A stretch of 64,000 bases of DNA from Candidatus Bathyarchaeota archaeon (GCA_963767735.1 CAVYES010000005.1:192001-256000); one strand, 5' to 3'; numbered from the stretch's first letter, positions 17,750-24,014 are shown. The notes: generated by a model not told the origin, from the sequence alone. Numbers and translations: made by a program.

Positions 17750-17796
17750 TTGGAGCCTTCGGCGGGATTTGGACCCGCGACCATTACCTTACCAAG
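17750..17796. repeat. att site: duplicated 3' half of tRNA-Thr
   Basis: TTGGAGCCTTCGGCGGGATTTGGACCCGCGACCATTACCTTACCAAG identical to 23937-23983. Confidence 0.93.
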
Positions 17797-18656
17797 CCGC
17801 CCGATTCATTGAACCGATGAGCTTTAGAGCTTTTGATTGGGTTGAATTCAAAAAATTCGTCCAGGGAAAATACCGCAAAACCACCGCCAAAAGAGTCATG
17901 TGCTATGCCAAGCGCTACTACCCTGTGCCTGAATCTGGCAATGTCGGGCAACTCAATGTTGTCCCATCAACCGTTAAATCTGAAGTAATCAAAAGTCTAA
18001 TCGTGATCTCGAAGTACATCGGGTGCTATGAGCAGTTCAAGGCTTCACTGAAAAGCTACGGAATCAAATCAGCCCAGCCAGACGCGCTTGCCGCCTTCGT
18101 CAGAATATACAACAATAACAACAGCAATTTGGACGAGTGATTCGCCAAAGTCAAGCCAATACTCACGCCACAGGAGAATTTATTGCTGAAATTCTTGCAC
18201 CAGACAGGGCTACGATGCAGCGAGGGCATCGAAAGCTTCAACCTGATAATCGAGCTTTCGCAGAAGCAAAGATTGCACGAGTACCTAAGCACTGAAACCG
18301 GGATCCTATAGAATTTCAGGTACAAAGGCAAATTCCTGCGCGGCACCAAAAATGCCTTCATCAGCATTGTGCCCGAAAGCTTGATCGGCGAAATTACCGG
18401 CAGCCAATTTGTCACTTATGCAGCCATCACCAAAAAGCTTCAAAGGCGGAAAATTCCAACTCGAATCAGCGAGCTATGGGATTACTATGGCACCTTCATG
18501 ATCAGGCATGGACTCGTTGCCCAAGAAGCAGACTTGCTCTGTGGAAGGATTCCGTCAAGCATATTTGTCAGGCACTATTTTTCCCCAGCGATAAAGGACC
18601 TTAGAGATCGAACCTTGAAATCTCTTGAAGAAATGGACGTCAAAGGCCTTCAATAA
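17751..18656 (+). pseudogene. int: SSV-type tyrosine integrase, Int(C) fragment, inactivated
   Basis: Single frame from the att: TGLRCSE, RGTKNAF, LWDY (Arg position is Trp), GR, FVRHY; in-frame stops at 18138 (TGA) and 18309 (TAG). Confidence 0.85.
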
Positions 18657-18771
18657 ATTAGGGGGTATAGAGGAAGGTCTTCCGTCTAAAAGCTAATCAT
18701 CAGAACCTATAAAAACAAACAAATAATATTCAAGAGGCTCGTCTCTATACCGCCCATTTCTCGAAAGGCCT
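18643..18771 (+). repeat. Palindromic ~130-bp repeat R1
   Basis: AAGGCCTT..GGGGGTATAGAG / CTAATCATCAGAACCTATAAAA / CTCTATAC..AAGGCCT; overlaps the integrase stop. Confidence 0.85.
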
Positions 18772-18838
18772 ACGGAAAAAAAACGGTCTTAGATCAACAA
18801 AAAAGTTGGAGAATAAAACTCCCTATTGAATTCTTACC

Positions 18839-19129
18839 TTATGGCTTTGTGAGAGTTATCTCCATAGTTGAAACCATTCTTGACCTGTTTTCGCCTTCTC
18901 TTGGCGGCATCTCTACTGTTCCGATTGCTACATTGGTCACTTTGAGGTCTTTTATAAAGCGGTTTCTTGTAATTTCTGCGCAGTCAACTGCGGTCGTGAT
19001 TGCTTGTCCTCTTGCTTTTAGTGTTATTTCTTTTTCGGTGCCTGAAGAGAATGCTGTTATGATAGCGAGCACATAGCTCATTGGCGGTTTGTTTCCGACG
19101 AATATTACGTCATTAGGTTTTTGTGTCAT
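18839..19129 (-). CDS. albA: DNA/RNA-binding protein Alba
   Basis: IFVGNKPPMSYVLA, LKARGQAITTAVD, VSTMEITL; alternative start 19153. Confidence 0.92.
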   Translation of the reverse strand: MTQKPNDVIFVGNKPPMSYVLAIITAFSSGTEKEITLKARGQAITTAVDCAEITRNRFIKDLKVTNVAIGTVEMPPREGENRSRMVSTMEITLTKP

Positions 19130-19200
19130 ATTCTTGTCACTTCCCGATTTCATATGGTTCCGTCTGGTATATGGCTAGTGCCGTTTTAGATATGGTTGCC

Positions 19201-19332
19201 TAGGCCTTCCAAAATTTTACCCCCATAGAGAGAAAGACTTGTCAGGTTTTATCTAATCATCGCAACAAATAAAAATCAAATAAATTAAATCAAACTTATC
19301 TACTCTACGCCCGCCAGTTTCCGGAAGACCTT
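19201..19332 (+). repeat. Palindromic repeat R2
   Basis: AGGCCTTCCAAAA..CCCCCATAGAG / CTAATCATCGCAACAAATAAAA / CTCTAC..AAGACCTT. Confidence 0.82.
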
Positions 19333-19417
19333 TGCCCTGATTGCGGCAGACAAGAACGGCCGAACCGGGCAAATCGAGACTTACAGATGCCGCGACTGCT
19401 GCCACAGGTTTTCATGA
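19333..19417 (+). pseudogene. Zinc-ribbon remnant (CPDCG..KNGR..YRCRDC.HRFS), InsA/integrase N-terminal-like
   Basis: Two frames joined give CPxCG...YxCxxC..RF; abuts R2. Confidence 0.45.
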
Positions 19418-19686
19418 TTAATCGTTTTTCTCTATTTTTTCATTTTGCTTATTGCTTAATTCGTAAGATATAATAAACTGAGTGCATTATGATCTGAAAG
19501 GCAAGTCTGAGTGGGGGTGGCGAACGTAGGTCAAGGCAAGGACGGCAGGTGCCGAGCAAAAGCCCGGGCAATCCTCGAGAGGCTCCAAAAAGATTGATGG
19601 CAGAATCCTTAGAGACTACTTTCACTTAAGTCTCCACTGCCACTTCACTCCTTTACTTCGTTATATTTTTAAGGAAAACCAGCAAA

Positions 19687-19878
19687 ATGTTTTGCGCTAT
19701 GTGCGATCAATGCCTGGTCAAGTGCTGCTATGCGTGCGGTCGCATGCCAATGGGCGGAGGCGGCAAGTGCTGCCCGAGATGTAAGATCCGCTTCTGCTAC
19801 ACCTGCACGCTCGAGCTCACGTATGCCCAAAAGAAGCTCCCGCTCGAATGCCCCATGTGCGGTGGAAAATTTGGGTAG
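19687..19878 (+). CDS. Small Cys-rich zinc-finger protein
   Basis: 63 aa with multiple CxxC pairs; homolog at 25345-25524. Confidence 0.7.
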   Translation: MFCAMCDQCLVKCCYACGRMPMGGGGKCCPRCKIRFCYTCTLELTYAQKKLPLECPMCGGKFG

Positions 19879-20237
19879 CGGAGAAGGTCGTAAAGTTGAA
19901 AAACACAAGTTATTAGAAAAAACTTCTAACGCCAAAAGTCTGAGCACAGCAGCCAAAGAAACGGCAAGCGAGACCGTAAAACTCAAACATACCGCTGCCA
20001 AGATTGCGCGCACAGGTTTACATAAGTGCATTCATTGCTTTTTCAATTCTGTCCCAAGCGATATCAGTCGATTAAGACATTCTATATCGTTTCTTCACAA
20101 TTTCATCATTTGGGTAAAGTAGAATCATTAAGTGATAAATTGCCTTTTCAACATCGTGAACATACGCATTTGCTTCCTCTGATGACTGGATCATATGTTT
20201 TGAAAAAGGTTTAGTAGGGCAGTCGTGCTCGCTTTAT

Positions 20238-20513
20238 TTACCTTTGAGATTCTTCTATGATAGGTAGCACTTGCGTGAGTTCTCGGAGTTGCTTAAGCAC
20301 AGTTATGCCTTGTTGTGTGACGGCGAAAACTGTGCTCCTTTTTTTAATAGTGCGTTCTTCGACCAGTCCCTGTTTGATAAGGAAGTCCAGATGGCCTCTA
20401 AGCATGCTGCCATTGACGTTAGCTTTGTACATGATGTGTGTCAGCTTTAAGGGACCTAACCGCGCCAACGTGTTGAGGATATCAATGTACGTTTCTAGTT
20501 TTGATCGTCTCAT
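20238..20513 (-). CDS. Winged-helix regulator (HTH_45/DUF4364-like)
   Basis: MRRSKLETYIDIL..LTHIMYKANVN..FLIKQGLV..VTQQG. Confidence 0.85.
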   Translation of the reverse strand: MRRSKLETYIDILNTLARLGPLKLTHIMYKANVNGSMLRGHLDFLIKQGLVEERTIKKRSTVFAVTQQGITVLKQLRELTQVLPIIEESQR

Positions 20514-20794
20514 AGGTGTTGCCTCAAGACTCTCCAGTTTCACAGGTGGTCTTTCCACTGTATAAAAAAGTTTATTTTTTTTATAAGCTTTTGCTATTTT
20601 CATTTGCTTAATTCATTGTAAACTGTATTCGGAATCAAGAAATGAGTTTTAAAGCTAAATGATGAAGAGACTTATTGCCGTGCTGTTTCTGTGATTGCGC
20701 AAAGCCTATAACAACGTCTTATATGCGATGCGGGAGAAGTAGGAATCCCTTGCTCCTTTACCTATCAAAAGGGGGCAAGTCTGGAGTTAGAAAT

Positions 20795-21076
20795 ATGACA
20801 AGAAAAAGCACCCAAGAAATCAACTTCTCTTCTGGTCAAGACAGCAAAAGCAAATCTGCTGTTCGCAAAGAAAGGATGCCAATTGTCAGATGCTTGTGCG
20901 GCTCCGAAATTTTGGTGGTGCCCGATTTGAAAGCCATGAACCGTGCTATAAAAAATCATGTTGCCGAACACAAGCAAGCACGTGATGGTTCAGATAGGCT
21001 TGAGTCGTTGACGGAGTTCTTGATAGAGCAGGTTCTTACAGTGGCAAGCGAAATAAATCTGCCGAATGTAAAATAG
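20795..21076 (+). CDS. Small CxCG/His putative metal-binding protein, paralog A
   Basis: MTRKSTQEINF..CLCGSEILVVPDLKAMNRAIKNHVAEH; paralog of 22627-22911. Confidence 0.75.
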   Translation: MTRKSTQEINFSSGQDSKSKSAVRKERMPIVRCLCGSEILVVPDLKAMNRAIKNHVAEHKQARDGSDRLESLTEFLIEQVLTVASEINLPNVK

Positions 21077-21092
21077 TCATGAACAATCTACC

Positions 21093-21224
21093 AAGGCTTC
21101 CAAAAATTCACCCCCATAGATGGAAGAAGGCTTTTCGGAAAATAGCTAATCATCAGAGCATATAAAATAATTTAATATAAATTATGGCTTCTCATCCTAT
21201 GGCGCCCAATTCGTGACAGGCCTT
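21093..21224 (+). repeat. Palindromic repeat R3
   Basis: AAGGCTTCCAAAAA..CCCCCATAGA / CTAATCATCAGAGCATATAAAA / CCTATGG..CAGGCCTT. Confidence 0.85.
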
Positions 21225-21360
21225 CTGCCCTCACAATATACGCTGAATCACCTTCCGGGCGGTTTAATTTTCGTGATGCACGTATAGTACTATTTTTTAA
21301 ACTAAAGTGACTAATAAGTACAAAGGAACAGTTCGAGAATCAATCTTGAAAGTGATAAAA

Positions 21361-21633
21361 ATGGGCGAAACAAAATCGCAAAAAAAGCAAACTGGACAAT
21401 TAATAATTCGCGGGATCACTCAAGATAACGCTACAAAACTTATCGAGTTTCTCACACAAGGAACATTGCTGTCAGAAGAGAAACTGTTTGAAACGGCTGA
21501 CTTCTGGCCTCAGAACGAAATGGATGACTATACCGATGCCGTGATCGCAGCGATGCTTATAGCAAAAAATACCGCGCACGCTAAAGACCACAAAAAGAGT
21601 CGCAGGCCACAAAATGTAATTCACTATGAGTGA
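21361..21633 (+). CDS. Hypothetical protein
   Basis: ORF with ATG 21361 after GTGA; no family recognised. Confidence 0.55.
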   Translation: MGETKSQKKQTGQLIIRGITQDNATKLIEFLTQGTLLSEEKLFETADFWPQNEMDDYTDAVIAAMLIAKNTAHAKDHKKSRRPQNVIHYE

Positions 21634-21821
21634 CGGTATTATTTTTTGGACTTAAACTGCCCGACACCCATTCCCTCGCAATGTGCATATCATCGATTTA
21701 TCCCGAAATTTTTTCCGGGAAATTTTTGACGCGCCCGAGCGAGTAAGCCTAGCCTTTGAACGGAAAAACATTTCTGCCTGAGTGGATTTTTGGTACTTTT
21801 TTGGAAGTTTGTCAGACCTTT

Positions 21822-21980
21822 CTAACGGACGGTGGCTATTCGTCCGTCTGAAGTATCTGTCATTTGCCATTCGAGCGTGTCGCCGGGTTGTAAATTCAAA
21901 AATTCAGCTATTCCTTCAGGCACCGTTGCTCTGGGGATTTCGATTTTGGTCTTGCTATCGATGTTTTTGATTTGAGGCGA
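21822..21980 (-). pseudogene. AbrB/MazE/SpoVT-family DNA-binding protein, frameshifted
   Basis: LKSKTSIARPKSKS / RATVPEGIAEFLNLQPGDTLEW in adjacent frames. Confidence 0.65.
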
Positions 21981-22172
21981 GCCTCAAAATTGGTTTAAGC
22001 GGATTAAACAAAGGACCCAAAGCGGAGTCTAATTCGAATCTCTTGAGACGCGATGAATGTGGTGTAAAAGAGTTCAAATGCGGGGACCCGGGCATGTTGC
22101 GATGGACCGAAAACCGCTCATAACGCGGCGCCATAAAAGTTATTAAATTTTCGTCATTTTTTATCATCCTTC

Positions 22173-22254
22173 AATCCGTATAAAGTGTTTTGGGGACCTC
22201 GGTCGGGTCGTCCGCCGATTCCGGGAAGGGCTCCCAATTTACTTTATATGGATT
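22173..22254. repeat. Long stem-loop (AATCCGTATAAAGT...ACTTTATATGGATT with GC-rich inner stem)
   Basis: 13/14 inverted match plus inner TTGGGG/CTCCCAA pairing. Confidence 0.65.
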
Positions 22255-22379
22255 AAATCATATTAGGCAAACAAGCAAGCACTCTCGTCCAGTTTGACAA
22301 GCAGTTTCGCGCTCAGTAAAGGCATGGATTTGTCGGAAGCTTCACGCCCACGCAGTGTACGCTGTTTCAGGGCACGCGT

Positions 22380-22513
22380 AAGGTCTTTCAAATTCTGAGG
22401 GGTATAGAGGGAGTAAGGCTTGCCGGGTTTTACCTTATCATAAGAACATATAAAAAATATAAAATAATTTTGGCTTGTCTTTCTCTAAGGTGTCCGATTC
22501 GGGAAAAGACCTT
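22380..22513 (+). repeat. Palindromic repeat R4
   Basis: Perfect terminal IR AAGGTCTT/AAGACCTT; GGGGTATAGAG; CTTATCATAAGAACATATAAAA. Confidence 0.87.
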
Positions 22514-22626
22514 TCTTAACTTCGCATCACTGTTTCCGTGATTGTGCCAAGCCTATCACAATTTCTTATATGCTTTGCAGACTAAATAGAACTTTACTAA
22601 TCTGGTAAAGTTAGGAATGTGAGGTC

Positions 22627-22911
22627 ATGACCAAAAAAAGCATTCAAGAAATTAACTTTACTTTTGATCAAGACCGCAAAAGCAAATTCGTTTCTCATAA
22701 GAAAGGCATACGTACTATCAGGTGCGCATGTGGTTTCGAAATTTTGGTGCTGCCCGATTTGAAAGCTATGGACCGAGCTATAGAAAATCATTTAGCCGAG
22801 CACAGGGCAGCAAGTGGTTGCTCAGAAAGTAATTTAGCGCTTGATTGGTTAAGACAGTTCTTGACCGCGCAGCTTTTAAGAGCGGCAAGCGAAATAATCT
22901 GCCAACCGTAA
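22627..22911 (+). CDS. Small CxCG/His putative metal-binding protein, paralog B
   Basis: MTKKSIQEINF..CACGFEILVLPDLKAMDRAIENHLAEH; GAGGT RBS. Confidence 0.78.
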   Translation: MTKKSIQEINFTFDQDRKSKFVSHKKGIRTIRCACGFEILVLPDLKAMDRAIENHLAEHRAASGCSESNLALDWLRQFLTAQLLRAASEIICQP

Positions 22912-22931
22912 ATTAGCCTGAACAGTCAACC

Positions 22932-23064
22932 AAGGCATTCCAAAAATTTACCCCTATAGAGGGAAGATGTCTTTCGGGATTTACCTTATCATCAGAACAT
23001 ATAAAATACACTAAATAATTTTTGGGTTGACTTGTCCTATCCCCTCCAACCGGCGACAGTCCTT
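22932..23064 (+). repeat. Palindromic repeat R5
   Basis: AAGGCATTCCAAAAA..CCCCTATAGAG / CTTATCATCAGAACATATAAAA / CCTAT..CAGTCCTT. Confidence 0.85.
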
Positions 23065-23248
23065 TGGCCCCAAACAATGTACAGTGATCGGGCAAGTTTG
23101 CGCTCCGGCGATTTTTATGTATCTTGGATGCGCAAGGTTTAAAAAAAGTAAATCGTTTGCTTGATTGGGCAGGTTCAGAGGGAACTGCTGGATGGTTCGC
23201 CATCTTCACGCACTTCCGCAAACTCTAACCTCCCCGCTTGAATTCTTC

Positions 23249-23379
23249 AAGACCTTCCGAAATCTGGGGGTATAGAAGGAAAGGCTTGCACGATTTTACC
23301 TTATCATCAGAACATCTAAAATGAAAGAAATAGTTTTAGGATTGACTTATCCTATCCTGCCCAGATTTTGACATGCCTT
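23249..23379 (+). repeat. Palindromic repeat R6
   Basis: AAGACCTTCCGAAATCTGGGGGTATAG / CTTATCATCAGAACATCTAAAA / CCTAT..CCCAGATTTTGACATGCCTT; overlaps the stop of the next gene. Confidence 0.85.
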
Positions 23380-23707
23380 AGGTGTCTATTAGTTGCAGTT
23401 CCGAAATTCTTTTCTGCACCGTCTCGGACAGCTGTTGTCGCAACGGTTCGTCTGGTGTTGTTTTATCTATTTCGTCTATTTTTTGGGCGAGTTCCTCGTC
23501 GCCGATTGTGGTTCTTAGCCACTTTTGGAAGTCGCGGCGTTCGAAGTGGAACCTGATTGATTGTATGTCCAAGTGCTTAAGGTCGCTTAAGAAAGAGCAA
23601 AGAGACGTGGCTGTCTCGCCTGAATAATGGCCATCTGGCGCAAAAAAGTGGAAACCTCGCTCGTAAGGAACTGGGCTAAGTATTTTCTGTGCCTTTTCAA
23701 CGCTCAT
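23378..23707 (-). CDS. DUF5752-like protein
   Basis: ILSPVPYERGFHFF..TATSLCSF..SIRFHFERRDFQKWL..IGDEELA. Confidence 0.75.
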   Translation of the reverse strand: MSVEKAQKILSPVPYERGFHFFAPDGHYSGETATSLCSFLSDLKHLDIQSIRFHFERRDFQKWLRTTIGDEELAQKIDEIDKTTPDEPLRQQLSETVQKRISELQLIDT

Positions 23708-23768
23708 TGACAAGGTAGTAATCTCCAGATGATAATGGAGACAAGATGCTAAAATGGTTTTTGCGCTT

Positions 23769-23899
23769 AAGGTCTCCAAAAACTGGGGGTATAGAGGGAT
23801 AAAGCCTTTCGGGTTTTATCTTATCATCAGAACATATAAAAATCAAATAAATAAATTCAAACTTACAAACTCTATACATGGCAGTTTTCGACAGGCCTT
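23769..23899 (+). repeat. Palindromic repeat R7
   Basis: AAGGTCTCCAAAAACTGGGGGTATAGAG / CTTATCATCAGAACATATAAAA / CTCTATAC..CAGTTTTCGACAGGCCTT; 37 bp from the att. Confidence 0.87.
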
Positions 23900-23937
23900 T
23901 GCCCCAATCATGGCATGCAATGAATCAGGGGCAAAGT

Positions 23938-24014
23938 TGGAGCCTTCGGCGGGATTTGGACCCGCGACCATTACCTTACCAAGGTAACGCCCCACCGGGC
24001 TAGGCTACGAAGGC
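23938..24014 (-). tRNA. tRNA-Thr(GGT), CCA encoded
   Basis: GCCTTCG/CGAAGGC acceptor, TTACC-TTGGTAA-GGTAA anticodon arm, GCGGG-TCCAAAT-CCCGC T arm. Confidence 0.93.

Follow-up and report, generated by a model that had tools for sequence, protein, structure and literature searches.

Co-oriented repeats of about 135 bp as probable exchange sites between gene units in integrative elements of one Bathyarchaeia genus

Bathyarchaeia are an uncultured, globally abundant class of archaea. Here, we report a family of conserved repeats, hereafter REPs, in a 64,000-nucleotide stretch of DNA (the window; positions below are window coordinates) from a Candidatus Bathyarchaeota archaeon (GCA_963767735.1, CAVYES010000005.1:192001-256000), which lies on contig C5 of a 3.04-Mb genome referred to as G000. 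Seven REPs are arrayed there in a segment integrated at a tRNA gene, together with the parts of a split tyrosine integrase. We consider it probable, with real room left for other explanations, that REPs are conserved linkers of about 135 bp which, within one genus of Bathyarchaeia, separate self-contained gene units in integrative elements and in islands, and that these units are exchanged at REPs.

A preliminary description of this DNA had placed seven co-oriented repeats at named starts, and a repeat search, MAFFT alignment and a hidden Markov model (HMM) bear this out, well above what chance would give. All seven are on the plus strand and 131-135 bp long: R1 at 18643-18775, R2 at 19201-19335, R3 at 21093-21226, R4 at 22380-22512, R5 at 22932-23066, R6 at 23249-23380 and R7 at 23769-23899. 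As described earlier, R1 overlaps the integrase stop (end of the open reading frame [ORF] at 18656), and 37 nt separate the end of R7 from the right attachment repeat, attR. The left terminal palindrome of R1 encodes the last integrase codons and the stop, and R7 is followed after 20 nt by the start codon of the integrase. The HMM built from the seven copies finds each of them in G000 with E values of 1e-27 to 1e-33, and the core 11-mer ATCATCAGAAC occurs nine times in this genome, in all nine cases within a REP. The consensus proposed earlier holds on 279 distinct full-length copies; from left to right it consists of a terminal AAGGcCTTCC, ATAGAG, a second AAGG-type site, the core CTtATCATCAGAACATATAAAA, an A/T-rich spacer, CTAT and a terminal AGgCCTT. 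In this set the core, about 22 nt long, is nearly invariant. Imperfect inverted motifs of about 30 nt lie at the REP ends, and the palindromic ends carry AAGGCCTT. About half of the copies have a left-arm box of C5 instead of G5, while the right arm stays C-rich, so that the change is uncompensated. Two boxes, GGGGGT/ACCCCC and GTTTTA/TAAAAC-like, at REP columns ~22-28 and ~51-56, are seen in either orientation within fixed surroundings, and their flips are mutually uncorrelated.

Fourteen strong REPs are present in G000, seven in the window and seven elsewhere: contig C4 has three at 255.5-264 kb and a single one at 197.7 kb, close to two partial arms, and the others are at C6 366.5 kb, C2 120.6 kb and C2 89.7 kb (the last one truncated). 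A sequence-only covariance model detected REPs in 14 of 36 other genomes of the genus versus none of 24 genomes that represent 20 further genera of the order, and a second draw of genus genomes gave 28 of 61; among the genera of the order compared, the REP family is confined to one Bathyarchaeia genus. The exact core was found in 53 stretches of a species-representative genome collection. Fifty-one of these are REP-positive by HMM (49 titled Bathyarchaeota/Bathyarchaeia or archaeon and two from a metagenome-assembled genome [MAG] titled Acidoferrum), and the other two, from Enterobacteriaceae endosymbiont MAGs, have no REP by HMM. The exact core is also present in at least 120 metagenome stretches and had no match among viral contigs. 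Most REPs are clustered (82 of 117 hits in clusters of two to eight, 35 as singletons), and neighbouring REPs within 10 kb point the same way in 52 of 53 pairs, and in 188 of 191 neighbouring pairs from 173 further loci. By a hand tally, the right-hand neighbour genes are about evenly divided between the REP strand (about 31) and the opposite one (29). Within any one gene family, nearly all members share a single polarity relative to REP. On the REP strand are a CxCG family (9/10), a stand-alone Lrp/AsnC ligand domain and both integrase types found near REPs; on the opposite strand are the REP-sandwiched copies of DUF5752, of a 128-aa family and of a CPCG family. In two loci DUF5752 lacks flanking REPs, and there it is encoded on the REP strand.

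The exchange reading is carried chiefly by the flanks. When 120-150 nt to the left and to the right of each REP were compared pairwise for homology, 54 REPs (1431 pairs) gave 24 pairs alike in the left flank only, 11 in the right flank only and one in both. With 363 REPs and a flank identity of 70-95%, 20 of 1072 left-homologous pairs were also right-homologous, and 15 of 604 in the reverse comparison. Broken down by left-flank identity, the pairs that also share the right flank are 7/239 at 70-80%, 9/656 at 80-90%, 4/177 at 90-95%, 6/36 at 95-99% and 71/79 at ≥99%; by right-flank identity, in the same five classes, they are 5/178, 9/299, 1/127, 10/70 and 71/74. R1-R7 behave in the same way, having 2-25 left-flank homologs and 0-13 right-flank homologs elsewhere, with no REP matching both flanks. 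The left flank of R1, i.e., the integrase 3' end, is common to 14 other REPs, and its right flank to none of these. Furthermore, the window REPs are 58-73% identical to one another and 75-89% identical to their respective nearest REP elsewhere; each is closer to REPs outside the window than to those within it, and therefore the array was assembled from old lineages rather than amplified in place.

Differences of whole units were searched for as cases in which a single REP elsewhere has flanks matching the left flank of one REP and the right flank of another, later one. No one-unit insertion or deletion was found among the first 54 REPs; they appeared after the 173 loci were added, and the search with 363 copies returned 29 candidate cases of unit gain or loss. 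In the clearest case, which was aligned with the window, locus L062 has the order integrase 3' end, REP, Zn-ribbon, and the window has integrase, R1, Alba, R2, Zn-ribbon, the difference being exactly one unit plus one REP. Block comparisons with unit differences are L092/L163 (one extra 1.2-kb unit), L188/L225 (two units), L082/L224 and L076/L057. Gain and loss are not distinguished in these comparisons. The preliminary description had asked whether gene order between the repeats varies among strains, and the unlinked flanks and the unit differences support a gene content that varies among relatives. It had also named a pair of outcomes that would speak against a cassette system, of which one, the lack of covariation within the repeat, was found (see below) and the other, a fixed gene content, was not.

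The positions of the exchanges within REPs can be estimated from partly homologous pairs. In diverged pairs, the left ~30-40 columns follow the left flank and the last ~45 follow the right flank, the middle being at background identity. Among pairs with a shared flank at least 93% identical, left-only homology reaches no further than column 20 in 39 of 49 and stops at columns 28-41 in seven and at 78-82 in three; right-only homology starts at column 117 or later in 33 of 70, at 43-64 in 21, at 98-106 in six and elsewhere in 10. These points are located at patches that are conserved: AAGGCCTTCC at the left end, the core, the beginning of the right arm, and AGGCCTT at the right end. Because there are several exchange points, each at a conserved patch, homology-guided exchange is favored over one fixed cut. 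Individual junctions are similarly spread: a 946-bp segment shared by C5 and C4 ends within R3, past its left arm and before its mid site, right-truncated REPs at array ends stop at columns 100-108, and in L042 a DUF5752 unit stands alone between half REPs whose overlap is in the core.

If REPs are exchange sites, recombination between two co-oriented REPs would remove a circle consisting of one unit and one REP, and one crossover between this circle and any REP would reinsert the unit, by which all REPs would stay co-oriented automatically. The exchange would be guided by homology rather than cut at a fixed site, and its catalyst may be the host homologous recombination or the integrase of the element acting in a homology-dependent mode. 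The conservation of REPs could then reflect an additional, sequence-specific role on double-stranded DNA (dsDNA), most likely protein binding at the palindromic ends together with a core resembling a B recognition element and TATA box. The palindromic form of the ends suggests that they are bound by a dimeric protein; that the winged-helix protein encoded by the commonest unit is this binder would be a guess. A regulatory role of REPs seems plausible.

A number of points weigh against this explanation. All of the comparisons are between different species or anonymous contigs, and many of the left-only and right-only pairs involve paralogous gene families rather than orthologous positions. The sets of 173 loci and 363 copies were not de-duplicated by organism, so that kin are non-independent and the counts overstate the independent events. 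The breakpoint estimator is blind within an invariant patch, so that for some of the events a fixed site inside one patch is possible. Four DNA runs, whose contigs on this stretch are up to 619 nt long, showed no circular or excised form. Concerning the proposed role on dsDNA, the sole basis for reading the core as a promoter is its likeness to boxes upstream of G000 tRNA genes, and about half of the REPs (hand tally) face the 3' end of a convergent gene. Finally, 17 REP-bearing genomes have no close homolog of the integrase. Two joints in read contigs, 21130>22983 and 23321>20185, were considered as traces of excision and rejected, since both reproduce the paralogous copy on C4.

The window array lies in a 6.2-kb integrated segment delimited by an exact 47-bp direct repeat (17750-17796 = 23937-23983, 100% identical; repeat family D9). 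The left copy is attL, and the right copy, attR, is the 3' part of a tRNA-Thr(ggt) gene on the minus strand (23938-24014, by tRNA call and Rfam), the integration target. The integrase of Sulfolobus spindle-shaped virus (SSV) type is in two pieces, both on the plus strand: the C-terminal part, int(C), at 17797-18656 (Pfam PF16795), and the start codon (23920) with the first codons, int(N), at 23920-23983, entering attR. Traced by hand, the two pieces share one reading frame across the 47-nt repeat. A PF16795 ORF that contains att and is split at a tRNA by integration is what defines an SSV-type, or suicidal, element, and the int(N)/int(C) split of this integrase class has been linked to PF16795 (PMC8371274). 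int(C) is 86% identical over residues 1-274 to an intact 280-aa homolog (L029:1192-2031, minus strand) and has two in-frame nonsense codons, TGA at 18138-18140 and TAG at 18309-18311, the former at the position of a Trp in the intact homolog. The window array is a fossil. Its integrase was split through integration and carries these two nonsense codons.

The tRNA setting is not unique to the window. In three other species (L028, L035 and L037), the array end adjoins a tRNA-Cys(gca) gene on the strand opposite to the REPs, as the tRNA-Thr does here, which suggests that the tRNA-Cys(gca) site is a second conserved chromosomal anchor for REP arrays. In these three loci the tRNA-Cys(gca) is followed by the same operon, with a thioesterase-like gene and ABC-type permease genes. 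A partial tRNA-like match in L037 was rejected as a clean element end; a Na+/H+ exchanger after a truncated REP argues against it.

The tie between REPs and the integrase is seen at several levels. All SSV-type integrase matches in REP-bearing loci are on the REP strand; in 11 locus rows the distance between the end of the integrase match and the start of a REP is 0-7 nt, the last codons forming the left palindrome, and in L200 the N terminus of an unsplit integrase is located 149 nt downstream of a REP. An integrase match of at least 60% identity, in some cases a fragment, is present in 11 of the 61 genus genomes, and all 11 are REP-positive versus 17 of the remaining 50; these genome counts include kin and are not independent. 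In a forward test, five genomes were picked by their integrase before the REP status was known: three at 66-72% identity and one at 54% proved REP-positive and one at 48% negative, and REP-integrase adjacency was present in only one genome. A REP abuts the integrase 3' end in many loci, and 17 REP genomes have no close homolog. REP arrays clearly persist without the integrase gene, and we regard the association as a lead, not proof. An SSV-family integrase, Int-pTN3, recombines identical segments as short as 104 bp (PMC8371274); by analogy, this homology-dependent activity may serve as a precedent for an integrase of the window type acting on REPs.

Remnants of a second integrase type are also found in the array, at 19333-19419 (plus strand; a frameshifted N-terminal Zn-ribbon of an Xer-like tyrosine recombinase, CPxCG ... 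YRCxDCxHRF, with CPDCG and YRCRDCCHRFS in different frames) and at 19930-20023 (a partial copy of its end), and 21673-21790 is 77% identical to the start of an Xer-like recombinase on C4. An intact 399-aa fusion of the Zn-ribbon and the recombinase is encoded in L145. This second recombinase was considered as the REP partner and rejected; 53 of the 61 genus genomes encode it, frequently with high copy numbers, and it therefore has no specific tie to REPs.

These observations bear on two related explanations in which the integrase is the agent. In one, REP is a site-specific recombination site, a dsDNA analogue of attC/attI, at which a dedicated tyrosine recombinase, most likely the SSV-type integrase, captures and excises units; we hold it to be unlikely, though it deserves serious attention. 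Its appeal lies in the position of REPs, which abut the integrase 3' end in those 11 locus rows and lie 20 nt (window) or 149 nt (L200) upstream of its start, in the REP-positive state of all 11 genomes with a closely related integrase and of all three genomes chosen for a close integrase of 66-72%, and in the strict co-orientation that is independent of gene direction; the nearly invariant core of ~22 nt, the palindromic ends and the L042 unit between half REPs overlapping in the core would suit a recombinase site as well. However, the exchange points are distributed over at least four patches, the most recent exchange in G000 ends between the left arm and the mid site, outside the core, 17 REP-positive genomes lack a close integrase, and the window integrase is dead. 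The likeness between att and REP is also weak, the colinear resemblances GCCTTCGG..GATTT and TTACCTTAyCA being equalled in score by 8 of 300 shuffles. The other explanation is a non-IntI archaeal gene-capture system, in which a suicidal integrase of the SSV family would use REP as a secondary dsDNA substrate and so collect, excise and reorder single-gene units, its own gene included, with arrays outliving the integrase; we likewise give it a low probability. The preliminary description had inferred a possible non-IntI capture or cassette system. What stands of it is that the repeats delimit reshuffled units and that the arrays are in tRNA-integrated elements; attC-like mechanics are not supported, since there is neither a conserved hairpin nor a single crossover, the exchanges being spread over at least four conserved patches.

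Three further explanations leave the integrase aside. REP might serve mainly in regulation, as a cassette whose core is promoter-like and whose arms contain operator or terminator elements, repeated between the genes of one family of mobile elements; the reassortment would then be only a by-product of ordinary recombination in plastic islands. The core, AGAAC-ATATAAAA, indeed resembles the purine-rich box plus A/T box found 35-45 nt upstream of G000 tRNA genes, several REPs are 12-110 nt upstream of starts on the plus strand, those of both integrase types included, and right-truncated REPs end near the expected transcript start (columns 100-108). Yet units have their own promoter-like boxes between the REP and the start codon, REP orientation ignores gene direction (the tally of about 31 versus 29), and RNAalifold, folding of single-stranded DNA (ssDNA) and covariation yield no conserved stem-loop, all of which makes a primarily regulatory cassette rather improbable. 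Less probable still is a miniature inverted-repeat transposable element (MITE), i.e., a non-autonomous transposon with terminal inverted repeats that accumulated in tolerant intergenic DNA, which the preliminary description had kept as an alternative. REPs do have the size of a MITE, the imperfect inverted end motifs, with the inner G5/C5 box reversed in about half of all REPs, and an intergenic position, often between convergent genes, and the 35 singletons among 117 hits would also fit; but co-orientation at 52:1 and 188:3 is not expected from transposition, copies are clustered, and homology of the flanks stops within the repeat with each arm travelling with the adjoining genes. Alignment of the flanks of 13 copies shows no apparent target-site duplication, no empty site was found that differs by a lone REP, and G000 contains no longer element with the same ends, with only weak partial matches (E ≥ 6e-4) beyond the 14 copies. 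A structured non-coding RNA or an attC-like ssDNA hairpin, also named earlier, has in our view the smallest chance of all. The arm motifs are inverted, as had been described, and R1 and R7 beat shuffled sequences in ssDNA folding (z -3.1 and -2.9); the other five of the seven REPs do not, and RNAalifold found no consensus structure on either strand for 13 copies. When the arm-to-arm pairing of R1 was written out and counted over 137 distinct REPs, 74.6% of the cells paired versus 74.7% in shuffles (305 of 500 shuffles as high), with a covariation score of 0.114 versus 0.112, and Rfam passed only two tRNAs in the window. With no consensus fold, covariation or Rfam match, and with the uncompensated C5/G5 swap, the arms are therefore to be read as shared motifs in inverted order on the duplex, not as a selected stem. 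A minus-strand ORF through the REP (family F8, 'YFICSDDKV') was considered and rejected: the CTAATC core variant gives a stop, and 46 of 194 copies are open throughout.

The units between the window REPs are mostly small, and three intervals contain exactly one gene, as had been noted before. Between R1 and R2 is an Alba-family gene (18839-19153, minus strand; PF01918, E 5.7e-19), and flank homologs in L181, L097, L092 and L163 tie the right flank of R1 and the left flank of R2 to adjacent REPs. The interval between R2 and R3 is more complex. In addition to the recombinase remnants, it holds a 63-aa Cys-rich zinc-ribbon ORF (19687-19878, plus strand; PF14369, weak, E 0.0016), a winged-helix regulator (20238-20603, minus strand; HTH_45, PF14947, E 5.5e-15) and a 93-aa CxCG...H..H protein, paralog A (20795-21076, plus strand; family F2), whose stop is 16 nt before R3. 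The regulator is the left gene of a recurring two-gene unit, REP, winged-helix gene (minus), small protein (plus), REP, that is found in L002, L027 and, with its right REP truncated, L036. Family F2 has 10 members, nine of which are on the REP strand, mostly with a REP directly after. The 946-bp near-identical segment mentioned above extends from 20185 to 21130 and corresponds to G000:C4:255714-256659, comprising the winged-helix gene, the 93-aa gene and the left arm of R3 up to 21130; the C4 copy is flanked by REPs on both sides, and the window copy has no REP at its left end. The divergent pair of the winged-helix gene (HTH_45) and the ~90-aa CxCG...H..H protein is a much-multiplied module in G000, where tblastn gave 16 rows in 13 loci for the former, two of these loci at only ~32% identity, and 11 rows in 10 loci for the latter; most of these copies are away from REPs.

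Between R3 and R4 is a 108-aa ORF for which no family was found in Pfam (21307-21633, plus strand), followed by ~750 bp without a convincing gene. The R4-R5 unit is a single gene, the 94-aa CxCG...H..H paralog B (22627-22911, plus strand; by ORF call and paralogy to A), and the R6-R7 unit is a single DUF5752-family gene (23378-23707, minus strand; PF19027) with its stop inside the right end of R6; the arrangement REP, DUF5752 (minus), REP was aligned in four genomes. Promoter-like boxes are present inside units between the REP and the start codon and are conserved upstream of paralogs A and B (repeat family D7). The 185-bp interval between R5 and R6 (23067-23248, plus strand) is a conserved non-coding unit and, from its flank conservation and consensus fold, a candidate small RNA gene. 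Four other contigs have it at 97% identity and seven more REPs at 77-94%, and it contains a promoter-like A/T box AAGGTTTAAAAAAAG followed by a conserved stretch of ~80 nt with a GGAUGG-UUCG-CCAUC hairpin; no Rfam match was obtained at E ≤ 1. In other loci (L030, L034 and L035), larger genes are sandwiched between REPs, i.e., those of an AIPR abortive-infection-type protein (PF10592) and a ~590-aa histidine kinase, and a nitroreductase gene (PF00881) directly follows the last REP of an array. Units are therefore not limited to small DNA-binding proteins. Large proteins of family F1 beside arrays, considered as replication or recombination proteins, were rejected as such; they are beta-propeller surface-type proteins.

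Integrons are the textbook case of repeat-bounded gene cassettes, and their attC sites are characterized by the boxes R''/L''-L'/R', i.e., RYYYAAC ... GTTRRRY. To our knowledge, the archaeal integron examples so far all have IntI and attC. Archaeal integrons were reported in 2022 (10.1101/2022.02.06.479319). The window resembles an integron in that co-oriented, imperfectly palindromic repeats of ~130 bp separate mostly single-gene units beside a tyrosine recombinase gene, and in that REP units differ between relatives and recur with other neighbours. It differs in nearly every component. The REP-linked integrase is of the SSV type with PF16795, both in the window fragments and in the intact 280-aa homolog, which has no NCBIfam match, TIGR02249 included; the Xer-like recombinase fragment scores 42.7 bits against a TIGR02249 cut-off of 265. 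By inspection, the consensus of 279 copies has no RYYYAAC/GTTRRRY boxes, no attC model having been run. The preliminary description was accordingly right that integron ends and IntI are absent and that the integrase is SSV-type. REPs also have no conserved hairpin, covariation or single crossover point, their units are on both strands with promoter-like boxes of their own rather than being promoterless cassettes in one direction, and the whole array is inside tRNA-integrated elements.

A closer parallel for the process may be the promoter early stem-loop (PeSL) cassettes of T4-type phages, in which recombination shuffles small genes and can give mini-circles (PMC2839356). There, too, the small non-essential genes of plastic regions are flanked by cassettes that are short, conserved and intergenic, and recombination between these leads to insertions, deletions and replacements of the flanked genes, as found for REPs. 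In contrast, PeSL cassettes are ~50 bp long with a proven sigma-70 promoter and a terminator stem-loop and follow the direction of transcription; a REP is 135 bp long, has no conserved stem-loop, ignores gene direction and is found in an archaeal chromosome or integrated element. With SSV-family elements and pTN3 the window shares an att inside the int gene, the int(N)/int(C) split at a tRNA and PF16795; repeat-delimited gene units are not described for those elements in the consulted part of the account (PMC8371274), and the lineage here is a mesophilic Bathyarchaeia of soil or peat. MITEs and Correia-type repeats are similar in size, inverted end motifs and intergenic position, whereas REPs are clustered and co-oriented, with arms co-inherited with the flanking genes and no duplications or parent element found. 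The direct-repeat motifs of Sulfolobus conjugative plasmids are much shorter than a REP. Recombination at these motifs rearranges the plasmids or causes deletions, and the motifs are not described as delimiting every gene unit in the portion of the source consulted (PMC4872121).

We found no paper on these repeats in the literature on Bathyarchaeia mobile elements, integrases and MITEs, a search that did not cover supplementary files. With hundreds of REPs in public MAGs and in peat and soil metagenomes, they provide a countable system for the shuffling of archaeal accessory genes, whose units include regulators, Alba, a histidine kinase, an AIPR protein and a nitroreductase, and they allow a second, homology-dependent activity of SSV-family integrases to be tested outside Thermococcales. 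The layout of an integron is built here from unrelated parts, i.e., a non-hairpin repeat, an SSV-type integrase and tRNA-integrated elements. The label 'integron-like' is right for the architecture and the variability of content, wrong for the parts and probably wrong for the chemistry. What we describe is repeat-mediated modular gene shuffling, here in a lineage and with components not previously described; by analogy with the known systems, its layout appears nearest to an integron array and its mechanism nearest to the T4 PeSL cassettes.

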